Shown one piece after another: positions 588-17,199 of a stretch of 17,199 nt of DNA; within the stretch, counting starts at the first letter, position 1; each line of letters begins with the position of its first letter. Origin of the DNA: a virus (Duplodnaviria > Heunggongvirae > Uroviricota > Caudoviricetes); the IMG/VR virus record IMGVR_UViG_2563366937_000009. One strand, 5' to 3'. The translations under genes and the position numbers were made by a program. The notes beneath the pieces were generated by a model. The model was not told the DNA's origin, made no database searches, and was given only the letters and a program-made list of their open reading frames with translations.

Positions 588-885
588 TATTATTTTTACC
601 TGTAGTGTAAAAAGATCGTTTCCCTCACAGTCGCTGACTTTCTTAAACAAACTTTAAAAATCAAATGACTATGGACTATTCCTACGATTCACCGTCCTCT
701 TTTCCCTACATAATGACGCGCTTATTCTCCAGGACACCTTTTGCTCTTTTATTAATGGGTGGATTTATTAGCAAGCATGTTCATTTATAGAGGATCTATT
801 TTTTAAAGTTATTTATTAAAGCTTTTTTCATTCTTCACTGGAGGGATCTGGCGACACTAAACGCTCACTTATCAGGAGATATCGT

Positions 886-1173: not shown

Positions 1174-1175
1174 TG

Positions 1176-1781: not shown

Positions 1782-1793
1782 TCAGAGGGGCCG

Positions 1794-2108: not shown

Positions 2109-2113
2109 ATACA

Positions 2114-2146
2114 TCCCCACCTTTACATAAGTGTGGGGATTTTTTA
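2114..2146 (+). terminator. intrinsic terminator after the lysis cassette
   Basis: 7-bp stem TCCCCAC (2114-2120) pairs with GTGGGGA (2133-2139) around a 12-nt loop, followed by TTTTTTA. Confidence 0.6.
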
Positions 2147-2254
2147 TAGCCATTCAATTTTTTCTCTAAATCACATTAAAAGATTCTTCACCTTCACTGC
2201 TTCAGAATACATTTCAACGATAACGAAGTGAGCAGTAATTAAGGAACACCCTAT

Positions 2255-2710
2255 ATGGAAATTTTATCTGTAATTAATTCTGTTGTGACCAGATTACGTG
2301 AACAGAATCCCGAAATGGACGTATTTATTTCATCGGTTGATGCCAATAAATATATTCCGCAGACGCAGCAAGTTACAGTGATTATTAATTATAGCGGTTC
2401 TCTATTTGCCATGCCTGAAAGCAGTGATGCCCTCGTGCAACAGCAAACGCTCCGTTTAACTGCCACCGTTATTGTTGGCAAAAATTGTGACGCGTTAAAC
2501 GCACTGGATCGCATACGCAGCGCACTGGGGGGGATCCAGCTTCCTGATTGCGAGCGTCTTCTTTGGCTTGAAACAGAAATCAATGCAGGCAAGAGCGGTG
2601 GTTTCTGCCGCTACATCCTGGAAATGGCGACCAGATCGCTGTTTATCGCAAAACGGGAAAGCACGGACCTTACCCTGCTTACTGAAGTTAATTACGAGGA
2701 AACTGAATGA
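2255..2710 (+). CDS. conserved tail-module protein directly upstream of the sheath gene (Mu gp37-like position); function unknown
   Basis: 151-aa ORF with an AAGGAA RBS. Its stop overlaps the next start (ATGA at 2707-2710). Assignment is by position in the Mu gene order, not by a recognised motif. Confidence 0.45.
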   Translation: MEILSVINSVVTRLREQNPEMDVFISSVDANKYIPQTQQVTVIINYSGSLFAMPESSDALVQQQTLRLTATVIVGKNCDALNALDRIRSALGGIQLPDCERLLWLETEINAGKSGGFCRYILEMATRSLFIAKRESTDLTLLTEVNYEETE

Positions 2711-2904
2711 AATACATCTACAACGGCCCGGCAAGCGGCGTCACCCTTGCCGACGGACAAGAAATCTTATTGTGGCCGAACAGTGAAATTGATCTGCCAG
2801 AAGAAAACGAGTGGGTTATGACCATGATTGCCCGCAATCACCTGACTCCTGTCATCACTCAGGAAGAACAAAATAACGGAGAGGAAATTGTACATGGCAG
2901 CTAA
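2707..2904 (+). CDS. small tail-module protein (Mu gp38-like position)
   Basis: 65-aa acidic ORF, translationally coupled to the upstream gene and overlapping the sheath start. Confidence 0.4.
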   Translation: MKYIYNGPASGVTLADGQEILLWPNSEIDLPEENEWVMTMIARNHLTPVITQEEQNNGEEIVHGS

Positions 2905-4318
2905 TTACCTGCACGGTGTAGAAACCATTGAAATTGAAACCGGTCCGCGCCCGGTTAAAGCGGTAAAATCCGCTGTAATCGCTTTAATCGGTAGTGCACC
3001 ATGCGGTCCGGTAAACAAACCAACATTGTGCCTTTCTGAAAGCGATGCCGCGCAGTTTGGCTCGACTCAGGCTAACTTTACTATCCCGCAGGCGCTGAAG
3101 GCGATTTATGACCACGGCGCCGGTACGGTGGTGGTGATTAACGTACTGGATCCGGCAAAACATGGCTCCAGCATCAGCAATGAGAGTATCACTTTTGATT
3201 CCAACAACCAGGCAAAACTGGCTCATCGTGCGGTGCGCAATGTCGTCCTGAAACCCTCTTCAACATCAGCCACTACGTATAGCAGCGCAGCGTTTCATGT
3301 TGATGAACAAACAGGAATAATCACTCGTGCAGAAACTGAGATCCCTGCCGGAGCGAAAGTTTGCGCCTATTACTCATGGGCCGATCCAACAAAAGTTACC
3401 GCAGCCGATATTATTGGCGCCGTTAATACCGCAGGCGATCGCACGGGGATGAAACTGCTACAGGATACCTATAACCTGTATGGTTTCTACGCCAAAATCC
3501 TGCTTGCTCCCGTTTTCTGTACGCAAAAATCGGTCACCACCGAACTGATTGCTCAGGCGGAAAAACTCGGTGCTATCGCCTACATTGACGCCCCAATCGG
3601 TACTACATTCCAGCAGGTACTGGCTGGTCGCGGCTCGAAAGGCGCAATCAACTTCAACACCAGTTCTGACCGTGCGCGTTTGTGCTATCCGCACGTCAAA
3701 GTTTATGACGGCTCAACCAACCAGGAAGTTCTCGAACCGCTATCTTCACGCGCTGCCGGACTGCGTGCCAAAGTAGACCTGGAGAAAGGTTTCTGGTGGA
3801 GCAACTCAAACCAGGAAATTCAGGGCATTATCGGTATCGAACGTTCACTTTCCGCAATGGTTGATGACCCGCAAAGTGAAGTGAATCAGCTCAACGAAAA
3901 CGGCATTACCACTGTTTTCAATAGTTACGGCTCTGGTCTGCGTTTATGGGGCAACCGCACTGCGGCATGGCCAACCGTGACCCATATGCGTAACTTTGAA
4001 AACGTTCGCCGCACGGGTGATGTGATTAACGAGTCGATCCGTTATTTCAGCCAGCAGTATATCGATATGCCGATTAATCAGGCACTAATTGATGCCCTGA
4101 CCGAGTCGGTAAATACCTGGGGCCGTAAGCTGATTGCCGACGGCGCACTGCTTGGCTTTGAGTGCTGGTACGATCCGGCGCGAAATTCACCGACCGAACT
4201 CAGTGCCGGGCATTTATTGCTGAGCTATAAATTCACCCCGCCACCGCCGCTGGAACGTCTGACGTTTGAAACTGAAATTACCTCTGAATATTTAGTCTCT
4301 CTGGAGAGCAATAGCTAA
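2894..4318 (+). CDS. contractile tail sheath protein (P2 FI / Mu L-like)
   Basis: About 474 aa. Start placed at the ATG at 2894, which has a GGAGAGG RBS (the track start at 2888 is an alternative). The C-terminal YGSGLRLWGNRTAAWP segment is the sheath-family G-x-R-x-WG-x-RT signature. A tube gene follows immediately. Confidence 0.88.
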   Translation: MAANYLHGVETIEIETGPRPVKAVKSAVIALIGSAPCGPVNKPTLCLSESDAAQFGSTQANFTIPQALKAIYDHGAGTVVVINVLDPAKHGSSISNESITFDSNNQAKLAHRAVRNVVLKPSSTSATTYSSAAFHVDEQTGIITRAETEIPAGAKVCAYYSWADPTKVTAADIIGAVNTAGDRTGMKLLQDTYNLYGFYAKILLAPVFCTQKSVTTELIAQAEKLGAIAYIDAPIGTTFQQVLAGRGSKGAINFNTSSDRARLCYPHVKVYDGSTNQEVLEPLSSRAAGLRAKVDLEKGFWWSNSNQEIQGIIGIERSLSAMVDDPQSEVNQLNENGITTVFNSYGSGLRLWGNRTAAWPTVTHMRNFENVRRTGDVINESIRYFSQQYIDMPINQALIDALTESVNTWGRKLIADGALLGFECWYDPARNSPTELSAGHLLLSYKFTPPPPLERLTFETEITSEYLVSLESNS

Positions 4319-4842
4319 TGGCTGGAAAAATTCAAATTAACCGTATTACCAATGCCAATATTTATCTCGATGGTAATAACCTTTTAGGTCGTGCAACCGA
4401 AATTAAATTACCGGATGTCAGTTTAATTATGCAGGAGCATAAAGCACTGGGCATGGTCGGCAAAATCGAACTCCCGGCAGGTTTCGATAAACTGGAAGGG
4501 GAAATTAAATGGAACTCCTTTTATCAAGACGTCATGCGTAAAACGGCAAACCCGTGGCAGGCGGTAGCATTACAGTGCCGCTCCAGTATTGATTGCTATA
4601 ACTCCCAGGGGAAAGCGAATCAATTAGCGTTAGTCACTCATTTGACTGTTATGTTTAAAAAGAATCCATTGGGAACATTTAAACAGAATGAAAACCCGGA
4701 ATTCAGCAGCGCCTTTGGTTGTACCTATATTAAACAGGTGGTCGATGGTGAAACACTACTGGAACTGGATTACCTGGCGAATATTTTCCGCGTTAACGGC
4801 GTGGATCAATTAAGTACCTATCGCAATAACATCGGTGGCTAA
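4318..4842 (+). CDS. tail tube protein (P2 FII / Mu M-like)
   Basis: 174 aa. Start overlaps the sheath stop (TAATG). Size and position are as expected for the tube gene downstream of the sheath. Confidence 0.8.
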   Translation: MAGKIQINRITNANIYLDGNNLLGRATEIKLPDVSLIMQEHKALGMVGKIELPAGFDKLEGEIKWNSFYQDVMRKTANPWQAVALQCRSSIDCYNSQGKANQLALVTHLTVMFKKNPLGTFKQNENPEFSSAFGCTYIKQVVDGETLLELDYLANIFRVNGVDQLSTYRNNIGG

Positions 4843-4847
4843 GTTAT

Positions 4848-4868
4848 TCGGGGCTACGGCCCCGATTT
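4848..4868 (+). other. GC-rich stem-loop just downstream of the tube gene
   Basis: TCGGGGC (4848-4854) pairs with GCCCCGA (4859-4865) around a TACG loop, followed by TTTCC. It may act as a partial terminator or mRNA stabiliser. Confidence 0.35.
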
Positions 4869-4892
4869 CCGCATGACCAATAAGGATACAAA

Positions 4893-5210
4893 ATGAAAGA
4901 ACATTATACCTTACAGTTCCCGTTTACTTCAGCGGCGGGAGACGTAATTAACACTCTGCAATTACGTCGCCTGAAAGTAAAAGATATGCGCAACGCGCGC
5001 CGGATCAGCGAAAAACCAGAAGAATGGGATGAACCGCTAATGGCTGCAATGACCGGACTGGTGCCAGAAGATTTAGCTGAAATGGATTTGCTGGATTACC
5101 AGGCATTGCAGAAACGATTTCAATCCATGCTTAGCGTGGCTACAGAATCCGCCACTGTTATGGCAAGCGATGGCGTTACTGGCGAGATGGTTTCGCTTTC
5201 CGCCCAGTGA
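4893..5210 (+). CDS. tail assembly chaperone (P2 gpE / Mu gp41-like)
   Basis: 105-aa acidic protein between the tube and tape-measure genes, the conserved chaperone position. An overlapping +1-frame extension is open to 5298. Confidence 0.65.
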   Translation: MKEHYTLQFPFTSAAGDVINTLQLRRLKVKDMRNARRISEKPEEWDEPLMAAMTGLVPEDLAEMDLLDYQALQKRFQSMLSVATESATVMASDGVTGEMVSLSAQ

Positions 5211-5399
5211 GATAGACGCCCTTACCGTCGATGACTTTAGCAACTGGCTGGATGAAGCCAACGCCCAAATAAAAATCGAATATGACTCGCAGACCTGATG
5301 TCTGCGAGTTTCCCAAGCCCGTCAGGTTTATTTCTTCCCTGCCCTTTTTTTTAGAAAAATAACCAGCGGGCCATTATCAATATTTAAAGAGAAACAATT

Positions 5400-7760
5400 T
5401 TGGCCAACGATATTATTACCCAGCTTCAGGCGCGTAATGAGACGTTGACGCAGGCAATAGCCCGTTACGGCTCACTCAACGCCAGAACATTGTTAACTCT
5501 CTCTACTCAGCAAGCGACAGTTATCAAACTAACGCAGCGACTTGCCGATTCCGCTCTCCGCCTGGAGGAAAATAGCCGCAGCCGCGCTAATCTGATGGAG
5601 AAAACCCAAACATTTGCCGGGCAATTTAGCAAAGTATTCAATGTTGAAGCCCCCGACTGGAAGTTGCCGTATGAGTTTCAGGACAATATGGTCAATATGG
5701 CGACCAAAGGTGGGATGAGTGATGCCACTCGCGAGACGCTCAGCCTTAATCTGCGCGACTGGAGTATGGATTTTAACCAGCAGCAGACCACGTTACAGTC
5801 CGCCGCTCTGACCTTAGTTGAAGGCAACATATCGTCCTTGCAGGATCTCAACCGCTATATGCCGGAGATCGCCAAAGCCGCCACCGCCACGCGCGACAGC
5901 GCCGAAACATGGGCGAAAGCCGCGCTCGCGACTCATGATCGACTGAATATTGCCCCGGAAAATTTCCACGCTGCGCAAAACATGATGTACAGCGTTACCA
6001 AAAGCGGTGGGCCTGCCATTGCCGAACAAACGCAGTGGATAGAGAAATTTGCAGGTAAAACCGGCGCTCAGGGTCTGGAAGGTATGGCTGAACTGACCGC
6101 CACCATGCAGATCGCCATGAAAAACGGTGCCAGCGCCAGTGCAGCGGCGGAGAATTTCGACCATTTTCTACAAACCACATTTTCGAAAAAAACCGATAAC
6201 TGGTTCGCCAGCCAGGGCGTCGATCTGCAAGGTTCTCTGCTGGAGCATCAGCAAAACGGTATGGGTGTTAGCGAAGCTATGACTCATATCGTGCAAATGC
6301 AGCTTGAGAAGATGAATCCGGCGATCCTCGATACCTTCAAACGCACCATGCAGATTGAAGATTTATCTGCCCGCAGCAATGCGCTGCAATCGATGGTGAC
6401 GCAGTTTAATCTGGGCGAAATGTTCGGCGATGCGCAAACGGTGGAATTCCTGGCCCCTATGCTGGCGAACATGGAAGAGTATCGCCAGCTAAAAGCCTCT
6501 GCCATGCAAGCCACCAGCAAGAATCTGATTGATGCCGACTTTTCTGCGCAAATGGCTTCGCCCATTGAACAGACTAAAGCGTTACAACTGGCGTTAAATG
6601 ATTTATGGCTCAGCATTGGCTTGCAGCTTATGCCGGCGATTGGCGAGCTGGCGCAAAGCCTTGCGCCGGTTATTCGCCAGTTCAGCGCCTGGCTACGCGA
6701 ACACCCGGCACTAGTGCAAAACATTGCGAAAATCGTCGGGGCGATTTGGCTGTTTAACGGTGCGCTGAATGTTTTAAAGCTGGGCGCGAACTTCATCGCC
6801 TCGCCGTTTATTCGTCTGGTCGATATCTTCCTGAAAGTCAGGGCAAGTCTGGCGCTCGGAGGCGCAGCGAGTAAGGTGCTATCGGCGGTTAAGTCATTGG
6901 GTGGCGGCGCAAAATGGCTAACGCAACTGCTTGGTCGTGGCCTGAGCGGAGCATTGAAACTGGTTGGTCGGACCGTTCTCTCACTAGGCCGGGTGCTACT
7001 GATGAATCCCATTGGTCTGGTCATCACTGCGATTGCGGGCGCGGCTTATCTGATTTATCGCAACTGGGAACCTATCACCAGGTTCTTTTCCGCCATCTGG
7101 AAACGTATTACCACGGCCTTTGACGGTGGCATTGCAGGTATTAGCCGGTTGATTCTCGACTGGTCGCCACTGGGGCTGTTCTACAGCGCCTTTTCCGGTG
7201 TGATGAATTGGTTTGGTGTTGAGATGCCTGCGAGTTTTAGCGAGTTCGGCAGCAATATACTGGGTAGCCTGGCCGACGGCATAATGAATGCTTTCCCCGC
7301 TCTGAAAGGCATTATTGATCAGGTCAAAAACGCCATGCCAGACTGGCTAAAAGCCACAATGGGGATCGGCACAGAAGCATCGGCTGCGACTGTTACAGGC
7401 ACGACTAATACCGCATCAGTCTCCCCCGCGACCGTTGTTCCAGGCGTTGCCGGTGCGCTTTTAACGCCGCCTGTGGGCAAACAACTCGCGCCATCCAGCA
7501 AAACGACAACGCCGTCATCGGCGCCAGTGGCAAAACCCGCGTCGGCCTCTTTACCAAGTAAATCCGTAACCAAACCGGCGACGCTACCCTCCCGTTCCCC
7601 AGGAAAAGTCCAGGTGAATTTTTCGCCACAAATTACCGTGCAGGGTAACGGACAAAACACCACTAAAGACATTCAGAACGTGTTGACGATGAGTAAACGC
7701 GAACTGGAAAGAATGATTAACGACGTAATGGCGCAGCAACAGCGCCGGGGGTATGCCTGA
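5400..7760 (+). CDS. tail tape measure protein
   Basis: 786 aa. Apparent TTG start at 5400, with an in-frame stop at 5385-5387 and AAGAGA upstream. Long helical N-terminal region, hydrophobic Gly/Ala/Leu-rich central region and a Pro/Ser/Thr/Ala/Lys-rich C-terminal linker. Sits at the canonical position after the chaperone. Confidence 0.85.
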   Translation: MANDIITQLQARNETLTQAIARYGSLNARTLLTLSTQQATVIKLTQRLADSALRLEENSRSRANLMEKTQTFAGQFSKVFNVEAPDWKLPYEFQDNMVNMATKGGMSDATRETLSLNLRDWSMDFNQQQTTLQSAALTLVEGNISSLQDLNRYMPEIAKAATATRDSAETWAKAALATHDRLNIAPENFHAAQNMMYSVTKSGGPAIAEQTQWIEKFAGKTGAQGLEGMAELTATMQIAMKNGASASAAAENFDHFLQTTFSKKTDNWFASQGVDLQGSLLEHQQNGMGVSEAMTHIVQMQLEKMNPAILDTFKRTMQIEDLSARSNALQSMVTQFNLGEMFGDAQTVEFLAPMLANMEEYRQLKASAMQATSKNLIDADFSAQMASPIEQTKALQLALNDLWLSIGLQLMPAIGELAQSLAPVIRQFSAWLREHPALVQNIAKIVGAIWLFNGALNVLKLGANFIASPFIRLVDIFLKVRASLALGGAASKVLSAVKSLGGGAKWLTQLLGRGLSGALKLVGRTVLSLGRVLLMNPIGLVITAIAGAAYLIYRNWEPITRFFSAIWKRITTAFDGGIAGISRLILDWSPLGLFYSAFSGVMNWFGVEMPASFSEFGSNILGSLADGIMNAFPALKGIIDQVKNAMPDWLKATMGIGTEASAATVTGTTNTASVSPATVVPGVAGALLTPPVGKQLAPSSKTTTPSSAPVAKPASASLPSKSVTKPATLPSRSPGKVQVNFSPQITVQGNGQNTTKDIQNVLTMSKRELERMINDVMAQQQRRGYA

Positions 7761-8713
7761 TGTATGCCGTTTTAGGAGAGATTGAATTTAAGGTTGTCAC
7801 ATTCTGGGACGGCTTTAAAAGCACAATGGGCGTGGATTACGCCACACATGCCCGTATTGAAGGCAAACCTGGCGTGCAGTTTATTGGCGATAAGCTGGAC
7901 ATGCTGGCGCTGGAATTTTCCCTGCACAGCCAGTTTTGCCAACCCACAACAGAGCTGAATCGACTGCGTGAAGCCATGCTTGCCCACAAAGCAATGGCGC
8001 TGGTGTTTGGCAACGGTGATTATCGCGGCTGGTTTGTAATTACAGAGTTAACCGCCACTCACCAGCACACCGATCCCTGGGGCAATGTCATTGCCCAAAG
8101 CGGAACAATGTCGCTCCAGGAGTATACCGGCGATCCGAAAAACCCACTCCTGCCCCCGGCGATTACCACCCAGGAGCCTAATATTGACGAAAAGGCGAGC
8201 GATTTTCCGGACAAGGTGGAGTCCTGGTTGGATCAGATATTGAACGCCATTGAAGAAGGTATGCGCAAAGCCAAAGAGATGATCGATGAACTGGCGCAAT
8301 CCATTGAAGATATTAAAAAAACAGTGGCAAAGGTTAAAGCACTGATTAAAGAGGCCAAAGCGTTAAAAGAAAAGTGTGAAAAGATAATTACGTCGTTGAA
8401 AAAGACTATCGATGCCATCGAAACCCTGTTTAAACAGCCGATGGATCTGCAAACGCTGGCAGGATTACCAAAAGCGTTGTCGGCGCAGATTAAAGCATTG
8501 CTGGGTAGCCTGCCGGGTATCCGCGACTGCGCCAAAGACGCCGGGACACTGGTTGACCATGCACAAGAACTGTTTGGCAGCATCACCAGCGCCATCGCCG
8601 AAGCAACTTTCGATAAAGCCACAACGTTGGTTGAGCAGGCGCGTACAACGGTACAGCAAACCACTCCCGCAGTGACTCAGCTCGCTGCCGCGACCATTAC
8701 GAGGAGCTGGTAA
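7760..8713 (+). CDS. gpU-like tail protein (Mu DNA-circularisation protein N-terminal-domain type) with a C-terminal coiled-coil extension
   Basis: 317 aa. Start overlaps the tape-measure stop (TGATG). The N-terminal ~150 aa has the P2 gpU / Mu N pattern by eye. Residues ~165-230 are Lys/Glu-rich heptad-like (KAKEMIDELAQSIEDIKKTVAKVKALIKEAKALKEKCEKII). Confidence 0.55.
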   Translation: MYAVLGEIEFKVVTFWDGFKSTMGVDYATHARIEGKPGVQFIGDKLDMLALEFSLHSQFCQPTTELNRLREAMLAHKAMALVFGNGDYRGWFVITELTATHQHTDPWGNVIAQSGTMSLQEYTGDPKNPLLPPAITTQEPNIDEKASDFPDKVESWLDQILNAIEEGMRKAKEMIDELAQSIEDIKKTVAKVKALIKEAKALKEKCEKIITSLKKTIDAIETLFKQPMDLQTLAGLPKALSAQIKALLGSLPGIRDCAKDAGTLVDHAQELFGSITSAIAEATFDKATTLVEQARTTVQQTTPAVTQLAAATITRSW

Positions 8714-8922
8714 TGCGATACCTTGAACATATCACCACCGACGGCGAACGCTGGGATAACCTGGCATGGCATTACTACGGTGATGCACTGGCTTATGAAC
8801 GCATTATCGCCGCCAATCCACATGTCGCCATTTATCCGGTACTGCCTGCCGGTATTCAGCTCATTATTCCGGTCATTACCGTCAACAAGACCGTATCGGA
8901 GATCCCACCATGGCTGAGATAA
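8713..8922 (+). CDS. tail protein X (P2 gpX-like, LysM-like)
   Basis: 69 aa. TAATG overlap with the upstream gene. The conserved position between the gpU-like and gpD-like genes matches the phiCTX/R-pyocin order U-X-D. Confidence 0.65.
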   Translation: MRYLEHITTDGERWDNLAWHYYGDALAYERIIAANPHVAIYPVLPAGIQLIIPVITVNKTVSEIPPWLR

Positions 8923-9950
8923 GCGTAACTGGCGGCGTCTTTGCCACGCTCGCGCCCATTTTTACCCTCTGGTATGGGCATAAAGATATCACTTATGACA
9001 TCACGCCTTATGTCACCAGCATCAGTTACCAGGACAGTATTAAAAACGAGTCGGATACCATCGCGATTACACTGGATGACACCGATGGACGCTGGATAAA
9101 AGAGTGGTATCCCGGCAAAGGCGATACGCTGGCGCTGCACATAGGTTATCAGGGGGAAAAACTGCTCGATTGTGGTCAATATATCATTGATAAAATTGAC
9201 ATTTCAGCACCACCTTCCACGGTAAATATTGATGGCATCGCCACTTCCGTCAATCAGGCGCTGCGCACCCGTAACAGTCAGGGCTTTGAAGAGACAACGC
9301 TTTCAGCCATCGCCAGCCGTATCGCGCAAACTCACGGCCTGACGCTGGTGGGCAAAATCGAGCCGCTGACGATTGACCGGGTGACACAGTACGGCGAAAC
9401 CGATGTCGGATTTCTCAAGCGCCTGGCCAGCGAATATGGCTATGCGGTAAAGGTGACCACCAAAGAACTGATTTTTTCGCATTTACCCACGCTGCGCTGC
9501 CTGGCGCCGGTGAAAAAGATCGACCGCAAAGACGTTTCGCATTTCACCTTCAAAGATACCATTAACCGCATCTACAAAAACGCCACCGTACAGCATCAAA
9601 ATAGTAAGAAAAAAGAACTGGTTATCTACACTCACGACAGCCAGCAAAAGCCGTCTGCCCGTGGAGTCGGCACCAGTGCCGACACGCTGAAACTGAACAG
9701 TCGGGCGCCGGACGTTGGCGCGGCGCAGGCAAAGGCCAACGCCGCGCTCGACAGCCACAACGAATATCAACAAACCGGAACGCTCAGGATGATGGGCTGC
9801 CCGGAACTGACGGCAGGCAATAAAATCGAGCTAACCGATTTTGGTGTACTTTCCGGTCAGTGGCTGATTGATAAATCGACTCACAGTTTTGTGCGCAGCG
9901 GCTATATCACTGAAATCGACATTTCACGCGGGCCAGCAACCAGCCAGTAA
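8910..9950 (+). CDS. late control gene D-type tail/baseplate hub protein (P2 gpD / Mu P-like)
   Basis: 346 aa. Overlaps the X-like gene by 13 nt. Size and position fit the gpD family. Confidence 0.8.
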   Translation: MAEISVTGGVFATLAPIFTLWYGHKDITYDITPYVTSISYQDSIKNESDTIAITLDDTDGRWIKEWYPGKGDTLALHIGYQGEKLLDCGQYIIDKIDISAPPSTVNIDGIATSVNQALRTRNSQGFEETTLSAIASRIAQTHGLTLVGKIEPLTIDRVTQYGETDVGFLKRLASEYGYAVKVTTKELIFSHLPTLRCLAPVKKIDRKDVSHFTFKDTINRIYKNATVQHQNSKKKELVIYTHDSQQKPSARGVGTSADTLKLNSRAPDVGAAQAKANAALDSHNEYQQTGTLRMMGCPELTAGNKIELTDFGVLSGQWLIDKSTHSFVRSGYITEIDISRGPATSQ

Positions 9951-9959
9951 GGAGGCAAT

Positions 9960-10661
9960 ATGAAAGGAGTAACCCGGCAAACGGGGATTATCAGCGATAT
10001 TGACGAAACCAGCGTTCGGGTGCGGGTCACGCTACCAGAGTGTGACAATCTGAAGAGTAACTGGCTTGCGGTGCTGCAGCGCAATTCTCAGGACAATAAG
10101 GATTACTGGCTACCGGATATGGGCGAACAGGTGGAAGTTCTGCTGGATGATAACGGTGAAGATGGCGTGGTGCTGGGCGCAGTATATTCAACGGTAGACA
10201 CTGCGCCAGTAGCATCGCGCGACAAACGCTATGTCCAGTTTTCTGATGGCGCAGCGTTTGAATATGACCGCAGCACCCACCAGCTTACGATTAATGGTGG
10301 CATCGAAAAAATCGTGATTGAGGTTATTGACCGTACCAGCCTGACATCGCCCAACGTTGAGGTTAAAGCCCAACACGTCACCGTGACTTCCGACACTGTT
10401 GATGTGAAAGCCACCGATGTCAGCATTGAAGCCAGTAAGGTCGATGTTAAAGCGGCAGCAGTGACGGTAGATGCGCCCATGAGCACCTTTACCGGCAACG
10501 TCACGGTGATGAAAAAACTCACCTGGCTTGGTGGCATGGCAGGAAGTGGAGGCATCGGCAACGCCGCCACGATAACCGGCAATGTCAACGTGATTGGTAA
10601 CGTTCAGGCCAGCGGCACATTGCAGGACAGCGGTGGCAACTCCAACCACCATTCACACTGA
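9960..10661 (+). CDS. baseplate spike protein (P2 gpV / Mu gp45-like)
   Basis: 233 aa with a strong AGGAGG RBS. N-terminal domain (GIISDIDETSVRVRVTLPECDNLKSNWLAVLQ) followed by a repetitive beta-strand-like C-terminus (VTVTSDTVDVKATDVSIEASKVDVKAAAVTVDA) typical of spike needles. Confidence 0.8.
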   Translation: MKGVTRQTGIISDIDETSVRVRVTLPECDNLKSNWLAVLQRNSQDNKDYWLPDMGEQVEVLLDDNGEDGVVLGAVYSTVDTAPVASRDKRYVQFSDGAAFEYDRSTHQLTINGGIEKIVIEVIDRTSLTSPNVEVKAQHVTVTSDTVDVKATDVSIEASKVDVKAAAVTVDAPMSTFTGNVTVMKKLTWLGGMAGSGGIGNAATITGNVNVIGNVQASGTLQDSGGNSNHHSH

Positions 10662-10666
10662 CGTTT

Positions 10667-10696
10667 AACCCGCCTGATGGCGGGTTTTCTCTTTTT
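10667..10696 (+). terminator. intrinsic terminator-like hairpin inside the tail operon, between the V-like and W-like genes
   Basis: AACCCGCC (10667-10674) pairs with GGCGGGTT (10679-10686) around a TGAT loop, followed by TTCTCTTTTT. Confidence 0.5.
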
Positions 10697-10759
10697 AATC
10701 AATCAGTTTTCTAAATCGCTTTAATATCCCCGCCGCCTGTTCAGGGCGAAAATACCCTC

Positions 10760-11119
10760 ATGAACACGAAAACACGCCCCTCTACGCTGCACTGGCAACC
10801 CGCCTTGCAGCGGCCTGAAGAATACGTCTGCGGACTGGATGATATTCACCAGGCAATACACATCATTCTGCGCACACCGCGCGGCAGTGATCCCCACAGA
10901 CCGCTGTTTGGCAGCAACTTGTGGCACTACATCGATTATCCCATCGAGCGGGCGATCCCGCATGTGGTAAGGGAGTCGGTAGAGGCCATCCGCCAGTGGG
11001 AACCGCGCTGCCGGTTGCTGAAGGTGACACCGGTAATCGACGGGGAACATCTGACGTTACGTGTGCAATGGCGCGCCGCTGACGGCGTAATCAACTCAAC
11101 GGAGGTGTTATGGCGATAG
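10760..11119 (+). CDS. baseplate wedge protein, GPW/gp25 family
   Basis: 119 aa. The pattern (HQAIHIILRTPRGSDPHRPLFGSNLWHYIDYP...EAIRQWEPRCRLLKV) fits the gp25/GPW family. Confidence 0.85.
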   Translation: MNTKTRPSTLHWQPALQRPEEYVCGLDDIHQAIHIILRTPRGSDPHRPLFGSNLWHYIDYPIERAIPHVVRESVEAIRQWEPRCRLLKVTPVIDGEHLTLRVQWRAADGVINSTEVLWR

Positions 11120-12225
11120 CCGAACCCGATTTTATTGACCGCGATCCTGCGCAAATTACCAGCGAGATGATTGCGCAGTACGAAGATGCCAGCGGCAAAA
11201 AGCTCTACCCGGCACAGGCCGAGCGGTTGCTGATTGACCTTTTTGCCTATCGTGAAAACCTTGTACGCATCGCCATTCAGGAAGTGGCGAAACAGAATCT
11301 GGTCGCGTATTCCCGCGCGCCAATGCTGGATTATTTAGGTGAGCTGGTGGGCGTTCACCGCTTACCTGCACAACCGGCAAAAACCACGTTGCAGTTTTCG
11401 GTAGCCAGTAAGAATCGAAATAACATTCTAATTCCACAAGGAACACGTGCCAGCGCCTCTGACAGCGTGATGTTTGCTACCGATGAAGATGTTCTGATTC
11501 CGGCGGGAAGTTTGCATATAGCCGTTCCCGCCACCAGTCTGGCAACAGGCGAAGCGGGCAATGGCTGGCAGCCTGCACAGATTAGCGCCCTTGTTGACAG
11601 GATTGGTTATTACGATATCAGCGTGACCAACCTGACGGCCTCAACCGGCGGCTGCGGTGAAGAGAGCGATGACGCACTACGCCAGCGGATCCAACTGGCG
11701 CCGGAAAGTTTCAGCAATGCGGGCAGCTATGGTGCCTACCGCTTTCATACGCTTTCCGTAAGCCAGTCGATTATTGACGTCGCGGTACTGGGGCCGGACG
11801 AAGGATTGCCAGAAGGCTGCGTGGAGATCTACCCGCTAACGCTGAATGGTCTGCCGGGCGTGGAACTGCTCGCGCAAATTGAACTGGAGGTTAGCAAGGA
11901 GAAAAAACGTCCGCTGACCGACAAAGTAAGTGCGAAATGCGCCGTTAGGGTGCCGTATGAAATCCGTGCGCAGCTCACACTGTTTACCACTGCCGATCAG
12001 GAGACAACGCTGGCTGCGGCGCGTAAAGCGATTAGCCTCTGGACGCAACAGCGGCAGAAACATCTGGGACAGGACATTGTGCCAAACCAGATAATCAAAG
12101 TGTTACAAGTCGATGGTGTCTATGACGTTGCGCTGAATATGCCTACAAAACGTATTTTGCAGGCGCATGAGTGGGCGGAATGCACCGCGATAGACGTCAC
12201 GATTGCCGGAGTCAGCGATGGATAA
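11110..12225 (+). CDS. baseplate J-like protein (P2 gpJ / Mu gp47-like)
   Basis: 371 aa. Overlaps the W-like gene by 10 nt. Size and position fit the Baseplate_J family. Confidence 0.85.
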   Translation: MAIAEPDFIDRDPAQITSEMIAQYEDASGKKLYPAQAERLLIDLFAYRENLVRIAIQEVAKQNLVAYSRAPMLDYLGELVGVHRLPAQPAKTTLQFSVASKNRNNILIPQGTRASASDSVMFATDEDVLIPAGSLHIAVPATSLATGEAGNGWQPAQISALVDRIGYYDISVTNLTASTGGCGEESDDALRQRIQLAPESFSNAGSYGAYRFHTLSVSQSIIDVAVLGPDEGLPEGCVEIYPLTLNGLPGVELLAQIELEVSKEKKRPLTDKVSAKCAVRVPYEIRAQLTLFTTADQETTLAAARKAISLWTQQRQKHLGQDIVPNQIIKVLQVDGVYDVALNMPTKRILQAHEWAECTAIDVTIAGVSDG

Positions 12226-12934
12226 ATTGCTGCCGCCACCGCCGCTTGCCAGCGATGAGCGTTTTTCAACTCTGGCAAATATCGCCACCGAGCGTTTTGC
12301 CCAACTCGATCTGACAGCGTTGATGGTTTATCTGGTAGACCTGGTTGATGCTTCGGCATTACCTGCCCTTGCAGAACAATTTCACGTTCAGGGGCTGGAA
12401 GGTTGGTTATTTACCACTGATGAACGGGAGAAGCGCGAGTTAATTAAGCAAGCCATTGAGCTGCATAAATATAAAGGAACGATTTGGGCGGTACGGCGGG
12501 TGCTGGAAATACTTTCGCTACCAGGAACTATTTCAGAATGGTTTGAATATGGGGGGAAGGCTTATTTTTTTAAGGTTGATATTACACTAGAGGAAAAAGG
12601 ATTAAATGAAGATGAATTTAATGCACTTATCGCATTAATTCACGAATATAAAAATGTTCGTTCAAAACTTGAAAGCATTACCATCTGGCTTATTAACCAA
12701 AGTCAAATGCCAGTTATTGGCAGCGCAATCCAGGGTGGGGAGGTTATTACTGTATTACCCCCTATTGCGGAGAGTATTTGGCAGTCATCGACACTATTTT
12801 TAGCGACAGGTTACTGTGTTGAGGAATACATAAATCTCTTTCCGTATCAACCTGATCGCATTACACAATCCCAACCGATTCATGTCGGCACAGGATACTG
12901 GAGTACCGAAATTATGTCTGTATACCCGGAGTAA
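12203..12934 (+). CDS. tail protein I (P2 gpI / Mu gp48-like)
   Basis: 243 aa. Overlaps the J-like gene by 23 nt. The N-terminal LLPPPPLA motif region and position fit gpI. The C-terminal half is markedly AT-richer than the upstream genes. Confidence 0.7.
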   Translation: MPESAMDKLLPPPPLASDERFSTLANIATERFAQLDLTALMVYLVDLVDASALPALAEQFHVQGLEGWLFTTDEREKRELIKQAIELHKYKGTIWAVRRVLEILSLPGTISEWFEYGGKAYFFKVDITLEEKGLNEDEFNALIALIHEYKNVRSKLESITIWLINQSQMPVIGSAIQGGEVITVLPPIAESIWQSSTLFLATGYCVEEYINLFPYQPDRITQSQPIHVGTGYWSTEIMSVYPE

Positions 12935-12936
12935 GT

Positions 12937-14433
12937 ATGGCAAGTGAATTTTTTACAATATTAACCACCGCAGGCAAATCAAAAATTGCCTCTGCGCTGG
13001 CGGAGCAAAAACAGATCCGCCTACAAACTATGGTGGTCGGCGATGGCAATGGTCATTATGTCGAGCCGACAGAAAGTCAAACCAAAGTTGTGCATGAAGT
13101 CTGGCGTGGGCAACTAAATACCTTAAAAATTGCGCCTGATAATCCAGCCTGGGTTATCGCAGAGACGATTATTCCTGAACAAGTAGGTGGCTGGTACGTC
13201 CGCGAGGTTGGGCTACTGGATGCTGACGGCACACTAGTTGCTATTGGCAAATTTCCGGAAACCTATAAACCGCTATTACCTGCAGGTGCCAGTAAGCAAA
13301 TTGTTATTCGCGCAGTTATGGAAGTGACCAATGCTGACGCGGTGACGCTTTTGATCGACCCTTCAGTCGTTATAGCAACCAGAGAATATGTCGATGAAAC
13401 GCTGAAAGAACATCAACAATCACGGAATCATCCTGATGCGACGCTGACGCAGAAAGGTTTTACGCTGCTGAGTAATGCGACCAATAGCGATGATGAAACC
13501 AAAGCGGCCACGCCAAAAGCGGTAAAAGCGGCATATGACCTGGCAAATAGTAAAGCCGCCACTAGTCATACTCATGCCTGGAATCAGATTAATGGTATCC
13601 CTGACGGTACGCTGACGCAGAAAGGGATCGTTAAACTTAACAACACGACAAATAGCCCCAGTACGGCGGAAGCTGCAACGCCAAGTGCGGTTAAGGCGGT
13701 GTATGACCTGGCAAATAGTAAAGCCGCCACTAGTCATACTCATGCCTGGAATCAGATTACTGGTATCCCTGACGGTACGCTGACGCAGAAAGGGATCGTT
13801 AAACTTAACAACACGACAAATAGCGCCAGTACGACGGAAGCTGCAACGCCAAGTGCGGTTAAGGCGGTGTATGACCTTGCTAATGGCAAGGCTTCGGCAA
13901 GTCATACGCACGCATGGGAGCAGATTACCAACATTCCCGACGCAACTCTTGGTAAGAAAGGAATTGTTCAGCTAAGCAGTATCGTCCCTAGTACCAGTAC
14001 AACAGAAGCAGCAACGCCATACTCAGTTAAGGTTGCCTATGACCTTGCGAACACTAAAGCTCCGGCAAGCCATGCTCATCCATGGAATCAAATTACTGGT
14101 ATCCCGGACGGTACGCTGACGCAAAAAGGGATTGTGAAGCTTAATAACACAACAAACAGCACCAGTACGACAGAGGCAGCGACACCCAGTGCGGTGAAGG
14201 CAGCAATGGACAAAGCAAATACAGCGTTGAATAACACCACTGCATCTATATCAGATGTCAGACTAGGTGCTAAATTTGATCAGGTTATGGCAAAAGGGGG
14301 GCGCTATGAATTCTCTGGTAATGTTCTGACTGGGTTGAGAATTATCGGAGAAGTAGATGGAGATGATCTCGCTATATTTCGCCCACTTCAGATAAAGGTT
14401 AGAAATTCTTGGTATACGGTAGGGCAACTTTAA
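12937..14433 (+). CDS. tail fibre protein with conserved N-terminal baseplate-attachment domain, a tandem-repeat shaft and an AT-rich C-terminal tip
   Basis: 498 aa. The N-terminal ~150 aa resemble the P2 gpH / Mu S N-terminus. Five ~56-aa repeats follow (T-L-T-Q-K-G-I-V-K-L-N-N-T-T-N-S...A-A-T-P-S-A-V-K-A-V-Y-D-L-A-N-S-K-A...S-H-T-H-A-W-N-Q-I-T-G-I-P-D-G). The C-terminus has a divergent composition. Confidence 0.85.
   Translation: MASEFFTILTTAGKSKIASALAEQKQIRLQTMVVGDGNGHYVEPTESQTKVVHEVWRGQLNTLKIAPDNPAWVIAETIIPEQVGGWYVREVGLLDADGTLVAIGKFPETYKPLLPAGASKQIVIRAVMEVTNADAVTLLIDPSVVIATREYVDETLKEHQQSRNHPDATLTQKGFTLLSNATNSDDETKAATPKAVKAAYDLANSKAATSHTHAWNQINGIPDGTLTQKGIVKLNNTTNSPSTAEAATPSAVKAVYDLANSKAATSHTHAWNQITGIPDGTLTQKGIVKLNNTTNSASTTEAATPSAVKAVYDLANGKASASHTHAWEQITNIPDATLGKKGIVQLSSIVPSTSTTEAATPYSVKVAYDLANTKAPASHAHPWNQITGIPDGTLTQKGIVKLNNTTNSTSTTEAATPSAVKAAMDKANTALNNTTASISDVRLGAKFDQVMAKGGRYEFSGNVLTGLRIIGEVDGDDLAIFRPLQIKVRNSWYTVGQL
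13441..14280 (+). repeat. in-frame tandem repeat of 168 bp, about five copies, inside the tail fibre gene
   Basis: Copies start at 13441, 13609, 13777, 13945 and 14113. Copies 2 and 3 are nearly identical at the DNA level; copies 4 and 5 are more diverged. Confidence 0.85.
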
Positions 14434-15086
14434 TGGAATATAAAAATTTTACACTCTATAAACCAACAGAAAGTATTGGTGGTATTTTTTATCTAAAATC
14501 TGCTGACGATGTTGATTGGTACGAGGCACAAAAAAACTTTTCTACCGAAACGTTAAAAATTGCTTATGATAGCACAGGTAGAATTTGCATTGCGGATACT
14601 GATGCCTCAGCGATTTGGCCAATAAATTTATCTATCAGTGAGATCTCATCTGAGAATGTTCCTGATGATTTTTCAACAAATGGGAAATGGCTCTGGAATG
14701 GCGAAAGTATAATCAGCTCTGTAACAATCGTAACCGCTAAAAAAAATAAAGTAGAGGATATCAAAAATCAACGCGACACCATCACAACCGATTACATCAT
14801 CATCAACAACCATCACTTCCACAGTGATACAAATAGCCGTATCCAACAGCTTTCACTCACTAAAATGGGAGCGGAGAAAAAAATCCTTCCAGGTTTAATG
14901 TGGAAAACTAAAAATAACGGTCTGATTGAGTTAACCAACGAAATCGCTGCCCAGTTTGAATCGGTAACAATAGATCACGATATGCGCCTGTTCGCCAACG
15001 CCCAGCGTCATATCGCGGCGGTGGAAGCTCTGGACGATATTCAGGCAGTGCTCGACTACGATTACTCCACAGGCTGGCAACCATGA
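14433..15086 (+). CDS. tail fibre assembly protein (chaperone; P2 gpG / Mu U-like)
   Basis: Start placed at the ATG overlapping the fibre stop (TAATG at 14431-14435); the track ORF starts upstream at 14409. AT-rich variable N-terminal part and a conserved C-terminal tail (RLFANAQRHIAAVEALDDIQAVLDYDYSTGWQP). Confidence 0.75.
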   Translation: MEYKNFTLYKPTESIGGIFYLKSADDVDWYEAQKNFSTETLKIAYDSTGRICIADTDASAIWPINLSISEISSENVPDDFSTNGKWLWNGESIISSVTIVTAKKNKVEDIKNQRDTITTDYIIINNHHFHSDTNSRIQQLSLTKMGAEKKILPGLMWKTKNNGLIELTNEIAAQFESVTIDHDMRLFANAQRHIAAVEALDDIQAVLDYDYSTGWQP

Positions 15087-15538
15087 GTAAAACCACTGTC
15101 TGGCTCGCTTGTTATAAGGGCCGAACAGAGCACCGTGGTATTGCCCGACTGGCTGACTGGCTTACCCGTAAAATCACACGCGGTAGTTATTCCCACTGTG
15201 AATTAGCCGTTAAGCATGGTGAAAAGAGTTACCTTTGTTACTCTGCATCACTGCGCGATCGCGGTGTACGCGGAAAGATAATGCCGTTACCTGCGGATAA
15301 GTGGGATCTATTGCCGCTCCAGGCCAGCCTTCAGGATGTGGAAACTTTTTTCCGTAAACATGATGGCAAACGCTATGACTGGCGCGGAGCCTTAGGAATT
15401 ATCACCGGCAATAAAGAACAGTGCGATCGCCTGTTTTGCAGTGAATTTTGTGCTGAATTTCTGCAATTAAAAGACAGCTGGCGATACTCACCCAATCACC
15501 TGTATGCCTTAGTAAGTAGCTGGCAATCCCATCCGTAA
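15083..15538 (+). CDS. hypothetical 151-aa protein, translationally coupled to the fibre assembly gene; possible permuted papain-fold (NlpC/P60-superfamily, YaeF/YiiX/LRAT-like) enzyme
   Basis: ATGA stop/start overlap with the upstream gene. A His-containing motif (GSYSHCELAV) lies N-terminal to a Cys-Ser-Glu motif (LFCSEFCAEFL), the order seen in permuted papain-fold enzymes. No signal peptide. The family assignment is from pattern memory only. Confidence 0.35.
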   Translation: MSKTTVWLACYKGRTEHRGIARLADWLTRKITRGSYSHCELAVKHGEKSYLCYSASLRDRGVRGKIMPLPADKWDLLPLQASLQDVETFFRKHDGKRYDWRGALGIITGNKEQCDRLFCSEFCAEFLQLKDSWRYSPNHLYALVSSWQSHP

Positions 15539-15543
15539 ATCAC

Positions 15544-15570
15544 ACCGGGCACAATGCCCGGTTCCTTATA
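15544..15570 (+). terminator. putative terminator at the end of the tail operon
   Basis: ACCGGGC (15544-15550) pairs with GCCCGGT (15556-15562) around an ACAAT loop, followed by TCCTTATAT. The T-run is weak. Confidence 0.4.
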
Positions 15571-16047
15571 TACTCTAAATAGCTTATATGGACACCTCCC
15601 CGATGCAAGCACGGTCAGACAGAGAAAATGGTCTCTGCGCCTTACTCCGAAAGGGCTGACCGAAAATGGAGAGCTATTCCGCTTGGCTATTTAGAATTAG
15701 GCTATAACATATTTATAAAAAATATTATTCCAAACAAAACATTCATGTGAAGAATAAAAATAAATTTTTAAAAATAAATATATTGCGTTATAAATCACTT
15801 CAAATATAGTTTGTCCTTTTGGTACCCTCATAGACGATGCGAGGAAACAGCGTGTTTACTGCCTCACTCCTCTGGAAAAGTAAGGTTATCACTAATAAAA
15901 ATGAGTCAGATAACACGTTGCCGCTGGCACGCCACAAAGATAGAGGCTTAAGTAGGATAACATTCACATACTATGCATATACACTGATTCCTCATTTGCT
16001 TATAAAAATTCAATAAAGCAAGGTAACAATAGAAAGGATAGTACGTC

Positions 16048-17199
16048 ATGGTTGATAAAATAATTTTCACTGTTACGCCAATTTTTTCCATTCCTCCACG
16101 TTGCGCTGCTGCTGTAGAGACCTGGATTTATCAGGTTGCTAAGATGACAAGAATACCGAATAGAATTGTTTGTATAAAAGAAGAAGGTTATTCTGATATC
16201 ACTACTGTCAGTGAACGATGCTCAATTCATCGCATCGGATTCGGTCGAATTTATAAACGCATATTTCAGAAATTGACGCGTATAGACCCCCTGCCTTATT
16301 CTCAACGAATTTTGAATGTCGCTAACGATTTCAATATTACGGATAACAGTGTAATCGTTGTACATAATAGCATGAAATTATATAGCCAGATTCGTGAGCG
16401 TTCACCTCATGCAAAAATAGTGATGCATATGCATAACGCTTATGAGCCAAAAGGAATGGATGCTAATGTCAAAATGCTCGTCCCCAGTAACTATTTAAAA
16501 GACTATTATCAGGGTTTTCTTCCTGATGCAGATATCGCTATAGTTCCAAATGGAACAGATCCATATAATACGGATAAGCACTGTGCCAAAATCAACAGAT
16601 CTGAACTGAACATACCCTCTGACAAGAAGATTATATTTTATGCGGGAAGAATATCTCCTGAAAAAGGATTGATGTTACTTTTACAAGCGTTTGAACTACT
16701 CATCAGAACCCGTGATGATATAGAGCTGGTTGTTATCGGAGATTATGCGAGCAAAAGTAAGGGTGAAAAAGGAATTTACCAACAGAAAATTCGAGAATTA
16801 GCAAAGCAACTAGGTTCACACTGCCATATGTTAGGAGGTGTCGCTCCTGAGGAAATGCATCGTTATTATTGTTTGGCTGATTTAGTTGTTATTCCATCTC
16901 AATTTCAGGAGCCATTTTGTATGGTGGCAATAGAAGCTATGAGTGCAGGTAAACCTGTACTGGTGAGTACTCGAGGTGGAATGATAGAATTTGTAAAAGA
17001 TAAAGATACTGGCTATCACCTGCAAGAGCTGATGACCCCCAAAACGATTGCTGTGGATATAGAAAAAACACTTAACAATCCTGATTTACTTAGTATTGCC
17101 CATCACGGAAAACAATTTGTCCTGGAAAATTATTTATGGTGGCAAGTTACTCACAAGTTTGAAACTGTAATTAGCAATTGGTTTGATTGTTCCAATTAA
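16048..17199 (+). CDS. GT4-type (GT-B fold, retaining) glycosyltransferase; likely lipopolysaccharide or surface-polysaccharide glycosyltransferase
   Basis: 383 aa with an AAGGA RBS. The C-terminal domain carries an E-x7-E motif (EPFCMVAIE, 16908-16934) followed by AMSAGKPVLVSTRGGMIEFV. The gene is markedly AT-richer than the tail genes and is complete (stop at 17197-17199). Confidence 0.8.
   Translation: MVDKIIFTVTPIFSIPPRCAAAVETWIYQVAKMTRIPNRIVCIKEEGYSDITTVSERCSIHRIGFGRIYKRIFQKLTRIDPLPYSQRILNVANDFNITDNSVIVVHNSMKLYSQIRERSPHAKIVMHMHNAYEPKGMDANVKMLVPSNYLKDYYQGFLPDADIAIVPNGTDPYNTDKHCAKINRSELNIPSDKKIIFYAGRISPEKGLMLLLQAFELLIRTRDDIELVVIGDYASKSKGEKGIYQQKIRELAKQLGSHCHMLGGVAPEEMHRYYCLADLVVIPSQFQEPFCMVAIEAMSAGKPVLVSTRGGMIEFVKDKDTGYHLQELMTPKTIAVDIEKTLNNPDLLSIAHHGKQFVLENYLWWQVTHKFETVISNWFDCSN

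Follow-up and report, generated by a model that had tools for sequence, protein, structure and literature searches.

A probably phage-derived lipopolysaccharide core glycosyltransferase gene beside a headless contractile-tail cluster at the lysC-yjbD site of Escherichia

The window analysed here is a stretch of 17,199 nucleotides, the IMG/VR virus record IMGVR_UViG_2563366937_000009, which holds a contractile-tail cluster followed at its 3' end by a single glycosyltransferase gene. The original prediction, made from the letters of the sequence, described this gene as a GT4 glycosyltransferase of low G+C content (GC) and foreign composition next to the tail fibre genes. It proposed that the enzyme might alter the lipopolysaccharide (LPS) of the producing cell as an immunity-like or seroconversion function, or that the gene might equally belong to a neighbouring chromosomal polysaccharide locus. 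We asked what the gene encodes, how firmly it is tied to the tails and where its relatives are found.

A glycosyltransferase cassette behind a headless tail cluster

The gene is an intact open reading frame (ORF) on the plus strand that occupies exactly 16048-17199, from the ATG at 16048 to the TAA at 17197-17199, whose last base is also the final base of the window. Its product of 383 amino acids (aa) matches the Pfam families Glycos_transf_1 (E 5.5e-37, residues 183-347) and Glyco_trans_1_4 (E 1.7e-26) and carries the GT4 signatures GRISPEKG at residue 200 and an EX7E motif, E288-x7-E296, the two glutamates of which are invariant in the 14 family members compared. The low-GC GT4 gene of the original prediction is thereby confirmed, and its foreign composition was borne out as well: GC is 0.376 and GC at third codon positions (GC3) 0.305, as against 0.507-0.540 and 0.52-0.58 in the sheath gene, gpJ and the flanking rluF. 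The AT-rich tract sets in at about 15560 and takes in the 509-bp spacer 5' of the transferase.

The family could be named more closely. The product matches the NCBIfam model PRK15484 (NF012028, 'lipopolysaccharide N-acetylglucosaminyltransferase') with 666.7 bits (E 9.6e-201) against a curated cut-off of 618 bits, residues 1-380 aligning to positions 1-380 of the 380 in the model, and NCBI already annotates it as an LPS N-acetylglucosaminyltransferase. Judged by sequence, the transferase is thus an enzyme of a known family, the WaaK/WaaD LPS outer-core glycosyltransferases (PRK15484; CAZy GT4), and belongs to a clade of that family encoded outside the waa locus. The nearest structures in the PDB are generic GT4 enzymes only (best E 7e-16). 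A PADLOC scan of the transferase, the last ORF of the tail cluster and three further small ORFs gave zero matches. A match to the Pfam family 'GT4-conflict' (PF20706, 47 bits) was rejected as a sign of a conflict system; it scores far below the generic GT4 match and is shared by homologues from waa loci.

Upstream of the transferase cassette, positions 1-15538 hold a headless contractile-tail cluster, typed by Pfam, that runs on the plus strand apart from a Mor-family activator or regulator gene on the minus strand (1-348). The order is Mor, holin, SLT lysin, Gp37, sheath, tube, chaperone, tape measure, gpU/X/D/V/W/J/I, fibre, fibre assembly and a final ORF of 151 aa. The repeat-rich fibre gene (12937-14433, plus strand; Phage_tail_fib and Phage_fiber_2), the gene for the fibre-assembly protein (14409-15086, plus strand; DUF4376) and the 151-aa ORF (15083-15538, plus strand; no family assigned) confirm the earlier statement that the transferase adjoins a tail cluster downstream of its fibre genes. 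No capsid genes were detected in the window, either in the ORF list or by Pfam.

The cluster has a fixed place beside lysC; orthologues adjoin lysC in E. coli and Salmonella (STM4198-4219) and are present also in E. albertii and E. fergusonii. By Nei-Gojobori estimates, which we used for all rates given here, the ratio of nonsynonymous to synonymous divergence (dN/dS) of gpJ is 0.04-0.07 and its synonymous divergence (dS) to Salmonella 1.1-1.3. The low ratio, together with a dS that tracks species divergence, is consistent with an ancient, domesticated tail cluster, and the cluster looks like an R-type tailocin.

The tail module ends at a terminator-like hairpin on the plus strand (15544-15562), which starts 6 nt past the stop codon of the 151-aa ORF and consists of a G+C-rich stem of 8 bp and a 3-nt loop followed by UUCCUUAUAU. 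Its predicted RNA fold has a free energy of -14.2 kcal/mol (z = -3.8), and 0 of 200 shuffled sequences were equally stable. Homology to the tail modules of E. coli and E. fergusonii stops at 15561. An AT-rich spacer (15563-15752), common only to the clade of the window, joins the tail module to the transferase cassette; it aligns with a cryptic-clade Escherichia contig (L007) and gives no alignment to E. albertii or E. fergusonii loci. From there on follows a 295-bp upstream region (plus strand, 15753-16047) that is conserved in every Escherichia lineage carrying the transferase. Homology with E. albertii and E. fergusonii begins at 15753-15757 regardless of whether the upstream neighbour is a tail cluster, a Mor remnant or a yjbD/rluF fragment.

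Within an invariant block of this region lie, on the plus strand, a -35-like TTGCGT (15783-15788) and, after a spacer of 16 nt, a -10-like TATAGT (15805-15810), which we take as a putative promoter (15783-15810) with a long leader; a ribosome-binding site, AAAGGA, lies at 16033-16038 on the same strand. In a scan with consensus promoter and terminator models, the hairpin was not called and no plus-strand promoter appeared 5' of the transferase. An ops/JUMPstart element (GGCGGTAG) is absent from 15539-16047, and its count over the whole window is within chance, so there is no sign of RfaH-type control. The cassette thus bears hallmarks of cargo, namely the upstream hairpin, a private conserved 5' region with its putative promoter and foreign GC. 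Because a hairpin follows the 151-aa ORF and the 295-bp block is conserved whatever lies upstream, the transferase appears to be a transcription unit separate from the tail operon. If the promoter is placed correctly, the leader would be unusually long (about 230 nt); it is strongly conserved, has no Rfam match and might be a regulatory element. An Rfam scan of 15000-17199 returned one chance-level microRNA model (20.8 bits against a gathering score of 100 bits, E 0.84).

On the 3' side, the neighbours of the transferase in GCA_000398885.1, an Escherichia genome of cryptic-clade or E. ruysiae type, are yjbD, rluF, pepE, yjbB, metH and iclR. The gene is flanked by the tail cluster upstream and by yjbD, rluF and pepE downstream, and lies next to neither the waaQ operon nor waaL. 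With yjbD, rluF, pepE, yjbB and metH as neighbours and no waa cluster, the alternative of a neighbouring chromosomal polysaccharide locus is not supported.

Transferase without tails and tails without transferase

An immunity gene of the tail cluster would be expected to accompany it, and the original prediction had proposed to look for such linkage in other genomes. In the clade of the window the transferase does follow the tail cluster directly in nearly all contigs examined. Linkage nevertheless breaks down both ways. Tail-less loci of cryptic-clade Escherichia, E. albertii and E. fergusonii (L007-L010, L022, L025, L028 and L029) carry the gene at the same lysC-yjbD site. In four contigs of a variant 96% identical to the window (L007-L010), positions 1-467 are fused to 15223-17198; a clean deletion of 14.75 kb (window 468-15222) has taken the tail genes, and Mor, the 3' part of the 151-aa ORF and the transferase remain. 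The 467/15223 junction (L007 9178) stems from a single clean deletion, with microhomology of at most a few bases. The E. albertii loci L028 and L029 show lysC, a 129-bp Mor remnant and then the transferase cassette, and the E. fergusonii loci L022 and L025 show lysC, zeta toxin, RlaP, slipin, yjbD, the transferase, a second partial yjbD and rluF. Counted as contigs and not as independent events, with similar places included, tail-bearing and tail-less places number 15 and 3 in E. albertii and 8 and 5 in E. fergusonii.

The converse arrangement is found in E. coli. Taking coverage of at least 80% of window 1-15560 at about 92% identity as presence of the tail cluster, 188 of 5426 complete E. 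coli genomes carry it, with no transferase at the site. Megablast with 15540-17199 gave no detectable match in these 5426 genomes, and the homologues found in blastn mode are all 60-80% identical (1866 chromosomal and 10 plasmid places); the three whose context was examined (L018, L038 and L039) all lie in waa loci. E. coli strain 20 has lysC, Mor, tail genes and the 151-aa ORF followed by RlaP, slipin, yjbD and rluF. Its core locus, the one core type read among the 188 tail-bearing genomes, is of R1 type and holds no member of the transferase family, with the caveat that the fibre gene of this strain is a pseudogene. The Salmonella STM4198-4219 cluster next to lysC is likewise without the transferase.

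Nor does the transferase vary with the fibre tip across E. fergusonii, E. albertii and window-type loci. In E. fergusonii, one and the same transferase protein accompanies two fibres, of 526 aa and of 498 aa, the C-terminal 120 aa of the latter being unrelated to the former, and is also found with no fibre. In E. albertii, an identical transferase goes with 554-aa and 498-aa fibres, which share the same tip, and again with no fibre. Conversely, the window-type fibre tip accompanies transferases that are only 82% identical to each other. The transferase is therefore retained or lost independently of the tail cluster and is not its obligatory immunity partner; a dedicated immunity role is not supported.

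The gene nevertheless is an old resident of the site. Its dS to E. albertii and E. fergusonii is 0.58-0.67, similar to the 0.44-0.78 of the flanking rluF and yjbD, which argues against a recent arrival. Between species its dN/dS is 0.13-0.18 (0.01-0.05 for rluF and yjbD), values that point to purifying selection, with or without tails, that is more relaxed than in housekeeping genes. One pair of lineages departs from this pattern: between E. albertii and E. fergusonii the dS of the transferase is 0.30 as compared with 0.72 in the flanks. The E. fergusonii copies (L022-L026 8554-12291) have a full yjbD and an rluF fragment upstream of the transferase and a truncated yjbD and an intact rluF downstream. 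This duplication, together with the low dS, suggests that a transferase-yjbD(-rluF) segment was transferred between the two lineages.

Tail-bearing E. albertii (L030 8952-9740; L027 and L031) retains a third, window-like allele as a decayed 3' fragment immediately behind the fibre-assembly gene. This fragment is 82% identical in nucleotides to the window gene and only 73% identical to the intact copy of E. albertii; behind it come 62 bp of window-type 3' flank, an RlaP remnant of 330 bp and the intact resident copy. Going by this arrangement, two family members once stood in tandem at the tail-bearing E. albertii site. In a sublineage of the window's clade, RlaP stands between yjbD and the transferase, which follows the tail cluster. 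The slot past the tail-cluster terminator has thus collected various cargo, being occupied by the transferase in the window, by RlaP-slipin in E. coli and by a hexapeptide acetyltransferase in Salmonella.

Relatives in waa loci and on phage-plasmids

The closest relatives with a name are the WaaD enzymes of R3-type E. coli and Shigella, which are 64-67% identical to the window transferase over their full length, have 380 aa, fall into the same NCBIfam family and share the N-terminus MVDKIIFTVTPIFSIPPRGA. Homologues of 64-67% identity occupy the waaJ-X-waaL position in R3-type loci of E. coli, Shigella, Citrobacter, Silvania and Enterobacter. In R3 strains the gene at this position is named waaD, and a published Shigella waaD deletion primer matches the coding sequence of the shared N-terminus (PMC3184986). 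WaaD acts at the terminal part of the outer core, and the family predicts the same for the window enzyme. Unlike the window transferase, waaD lies within the waaQ operon by the ligase gene and falls into a separate clade, whereas the window copy is a lone cassette about 0.4 Mb away on the K-12 map, between the tail cluster and yjbD.

WaaK (RfaK) of Salmonella enterica and R2-type E. coli is a UDP-GlcNAc:(glucosyl)LPS alpha-1,2-N-acetylglucosaminyltransferase (GlcNAc, N-acetylglucosamine) of the same PRK15484 family. It is more distant than WaaD, the Salmonella copy being 53% identical, and is likewise encoded in the waa locus. WaaK adds an alpha-1,2 GlcNAc side branch that is required for recognition by the WaaL ligase (PMC13293308).

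In a neighbour-joining tree the copies from outside waa form one group, sister to the R3 waa clade. Besides cryptic-clade copies, the group comprises members from E. albertii and E. fergusonii (82-83% identical to the window), S. arizonae (75%), P1-like plasmids (69%) and S. enterica (68%). Several of these are carried by phages or prophages. Escherichia plasmids with a 69%-identical member number 16; most measure 92-124 kb and one 49.5 kb. Among these, p1919D3-2 aligns with phage P1 at 96.9% identity over 74% of a 19-kb stretch. It has an acetyltransferase-transferase pair with the holin-ddrA block on one side and, directly adjoining on the other, the genes for fibre assembly and fibre. This arrangement, with a cassette of fibre, macro-domain and assembly genes, recurs in the E. 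albertii plasmid pEA22_2 and four IMG/VR contigs. An IMG/VR P2-like prophage (L065 7966-12256) has gpU and the transferase followed by assembly, macro-domain, fibre H, I and J genes on the opposite strand. In S. enterica the copies are situated in prophage remnants, three genes away from related genes for fibre and assembly, and the S. arizonae copy is a lone gene between umuDC and an endonuclease gene. Carriage by phages and prophages is thus seen for relatives within the clade; the window copy itself sits beside a headless, vertically inherited tail cluster and persists without tails.

Some further features of these phage-borne loci were noted. P1-like phage-plasmids with the acetyltransferase and transferase cassette were found in E. 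coli, E. albertii and E. fergusonii (L043 8457-10143, L044 4258-7143, L059, L060, L061 and L066). In the P1-like plasmids a non-P1 cassette of fibre, macro-domain and assembly genes stands at the place of P1 cin and the invertible C segment, and the fibre cassette of L065 is related to those of the P1-like plasmids and the S. enterica remnants. Fibre-tip, macro-domain and assembly genes, together with the transferase, may be exchanged en bloc among myovirus types. A literature search turned up no paper on the P1-like transferase.

Possible roles of the transferase

Enzymes of the WaaK/WaaD type cap the LPS outer core by adding one alpha-1,2-linked GlcNAc or glucose (Glc) to the terminal core glucose; they act at the inner face of the membrane, before lipid A-core is exported. 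We consider it probable that the window transferase is a separately transcribed, phage-derived LPS-core modifying gene in a cargo slot of an ancient domesticated tail cluster. This reading takes in what was observed of the gene, namely its family membership, its intactness, its location, its independence from the tails and the carriage of its relatives by phages. The product would be a cytoplasmic, retaining GT4 enzyme of a mobile, low-GC clade outside waa, whose other members lie as cargo beside fibre and fibre-assembly cassettes in P1-like phage-plasmids and P2-like prophages; the window copy occupies the cargo slot just past the tail-cluster terminator at lysC-yjbD. Its likely action would be the addition of one extra sugar to the core terminus. 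Such a sugar could alter the surface met by core-binding phage fibres and tailocins, resulting in conversion or exclusion, and could possibly change the attachment site of O-antigen. Which sugar is donated, what accepts it and whether adsorption of phages or tailocins is affected are matters of inference; masking of a receptor by the window transferase is plausible but unproven.

Several points weigh against this reading. The tree that unites the copies outside waa is a simple neighbour-joining tree without support values. Tblastn against INPHARED found no close homologue in any complete, annotated phage genome, the matches being confined to waa-locus DNA within records of whole Salmonella genomes, short fragments without annotation and remote GT4 enzymes, and megablast of the gene region against the phage collection returned nothing; phage-borne copies came only from plasmid collections and from IMG/VR. 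In the window the transferase is read in the same direction as the fibre genes, whereas in the P1-like and P2-like elements it is convergent with them, a mismatch that leaves a common 'fibre plus transferase' module undemonstrated for the window. The donor sugar, finally, is ambiguous within the family, as WaaK transfers GlcNAc and WaaD either Glc or GlcNAc: Kaniuk reportedly assigned Glc to R3 WaaD in 2002. The sugar of R3 WaaD is elsewhere given as GlcNAc (PMC3184986), and since the sources differ, homology does not tell which donor the window enzyme uses.

The phage-borne relatives invite a wider but tentative proposal, which in its full form we regard as rather unlikely. The WaaD/WaaK-like clade outside waa would be a phage-borne core conversion module that travels with fibre-tip and assembly cassettes of myoviruses (P1-like, P2-like and the tail cluster of the window) and caps the core sugar bound by the fibre, so that lysogens, and the sister cells of tailocin producers, no longer adsorb the particles of the element itself. 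The chromosomal copy of Escherichia other than E. coli would then be a domesticated descendant that still shields the cell from core-binding phages and tailocins.

A serious rival, although we hold it to be considerably less probable than a phage-derived gene in a cargo slot, is that the transferase is an ordinary housekeeping enzyme of core completion encoded outside waa. It would supply the residue needed by the O-antigen ligase, the part played by WaaK in Salmonella and R2-type E. coli, and its place next to the tails would reflect nothing but a recombination hotspot at lysC-yjbD. The gene diverges at synonymous sites in step with the flanking housekeeping genes, is subject to purifying selection and is kept in tail-less strains, and the lysC-yjbD site gathers unrelated cargo such as RlaP-slipin, zeta toxin and ccdAB. 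The requirement of WaaK for recognition by WaaL (PMC13293308) would fit such a role, and WabB of pO157 provides a precedent for a core transferase outside waa (10.1101/536201). However, an R2 type has been assigned to one E. fergusonii strain; this implies a waaK in its waa locus, so that the extra copy would not be the sole one there (PMC13293308). E. coli and Salmonella do without the transferase at lysC-yjbD, the dN/dS of the gene is 3-10 times that of the flanking genes, and its nearest relatives are phage cargo and not chromosomal core loci. A published core structure of E. albertii was not found in the literature search.

Less credible still is the dedicated self-protection gene, a transferase that masks the LPS receptor of the cluster's own fibre and lets sister cells survive released particles. 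Its position would suit this role: the gene stands directly after the tails in nearly all contigs of the window's clade, the decayed window-type remnant of E. albertii lies directly after a fibre-assembly gene, and the P1-like and P2-like relatives abut fibre cassettes. The Salmonella version of the tail cluster holds another LPS-modifying operon, gtrABC, and P1(S) fibres reportedly attach to the terminal outer-core glucose (10.1101/2022.07.24.501295). Yet a dedicated immunity role is unsupported because transferase and tails dissociate both ways, the former occurring alone in three lineages and the latter in 188 E. coli genomes, and because the same transferase protein goes with differing fibres or none in E. 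fergusonii and E. albertii. The R1-core E. coli genome with tails but no family member, its fibre gene being a pseudogene, also speaks against it, as do the hairpin that separates the transferase from the tail operon, the gene's own conserved upstream region and the fact that in tail-bearing E. albertii the decayed copy is the one next to the tails. It is very improbable that the gene is merely a remnant of horizontally acquired DNA, silent or in decay and without a present function; its GC of 0.376 is typical of silenced xenogeneic DNA and E. albertii holds a related copy that has become a pseudogene, but the frame is intact in every lineage examined, the catalytic glutamates are invariant, dN/dS stays at 0.13-0.18 over a dS of about 0.6, identical protein sequences recur in dozens of assemblies and the upstream region is conserved.

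The seroconversion idea of the original prediction therefore survives in part: an enzyme of an LPS family with relatives beside fibre genes in P1-like and P2-like phages makes such an origin credible, whereas a dedicated role in immunity to the tail cluster found no support.

A member of a named family would by itself not surprise a specialist, and the comparative picture is the more useful result. At the fibre end of tail modules of myoviruses, cargo that modifies LPS is met repeatedly, and three forms of it were seen: the transferase in Escherichia other than E. coli, gtrABC and an acetyltransferase in the Salmonella cluster, and the acetyltransferase-transferase pair in P1-like phage-plasmids. 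Conversion of O-antigen by phages is textbook knowledge; to our knowledge, there are hardly any descriptions of phage-carried enzymes that modify the LPS core, which serves P1-, P2- and Mu-type fibres and many R-type tailocins as receptor. Should the clade indeed mask receptors in the core, this would bear on the host range of P1 transduction, the choice of therapy phages and kin discrimination by Escherichia tailocins. The locus also counsels caution, as position alone is insufficient to name a neighbouring gene 'immunity'.

Known systems resemble the transferase in different respects. The phage conversion genes gtrABC and oafA/oac are likewise LPS-modifying cargo in or beside phage tail modules. 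Gtr enzymes, however, are membrane proteins that glucosylate O-antigen in the periplasm by way of a bactoprenol carrier, whereas the window enzyme is of the soluble GT4 type with predicted action on the core at the cytoplasmic face, and no Gtr family is among its Pfam matches. In T5, the receptor-blocking gene llp adjoins the receptor-binding gene pb5. The phage-borne transferase relatives may share this logic by analogy, as possible receptor-hiding genes next to a fibre cassette, but Llp is a lipoprotein that blocks a protein receptor, as opposed to a predicted enzymatic modification of LPS. WabB of pO157, a plasmid-encoded core GlcNAc transferase that acts on HepIII (10.1101/536201), is alike in location, being a core glycosyltransferase on a mobile replicon outside waa. 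It differs in acting on the inner core, and the best plasmid matches of the window enzyme are P1-like phage-plasmids and not pO157.

In the Salmonella tail cluster a gtrABC operon of family IV lies between gpV and gpW (L041 17227-20062, Infantis; STM4204-4206 in LT2). Davies et al. 2013 reported that this family IV GtrC is not phase-variable and has no detectable effect on O-antigen (PMC3688519); its target might be related to the tail cluster. The same Salmonella locus carries, after the 151-aa ORF and the hairpin, an AT-rich cassette with the hexapeptide-repeat acetyltransferase STM4197 (L041 25251-25727). We did not accept STM4197 as an orthologue of the P1-like acetyltransferase, the likeness being confined to hexapeptide-repeat similarity (43% over 76 aa), and a common two-gene ancestor is unproven.

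Our literature search found no paper that treats the lysC-adjacent tail cluster (STM4198-4219 in Salmonella) as a tailocin, and for the STM4198-4219 locus tags it found gene lists only. A paper on an ST131 'tailocin' (PMC9205054) was rejected as a description of this cluster, since it concerns a separate P2-like region. The 151-aa ORF is conserved from Salmonella (STM4198) to Escherichia without a Pfam, NCBIfam or PADLOC match, and may be a second fibre chaperone or an adaptor. Within the fibre gene, direct repeats of about 168 bp are 70-81% identical (13432-14216), and this repeat region is similar to P2-like and P1-like fibres. Fibre lengths among the relatives are 386, 442, 493, 498, 526 and 554 aa, and the C-terminal tips at the lysC-yjbD locus are of at least three unrelated types. 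Downstream of the transferase, the interval between rluF and pepE varies too: some relatives carry a ccdAB toxin-antitoxin pair there (L007 12628-13238; L045 13557-14167), and the window's own genome has two tiny ORFs only (L001 12777-13207), which is a further sign of a hotspot for accessory genes.

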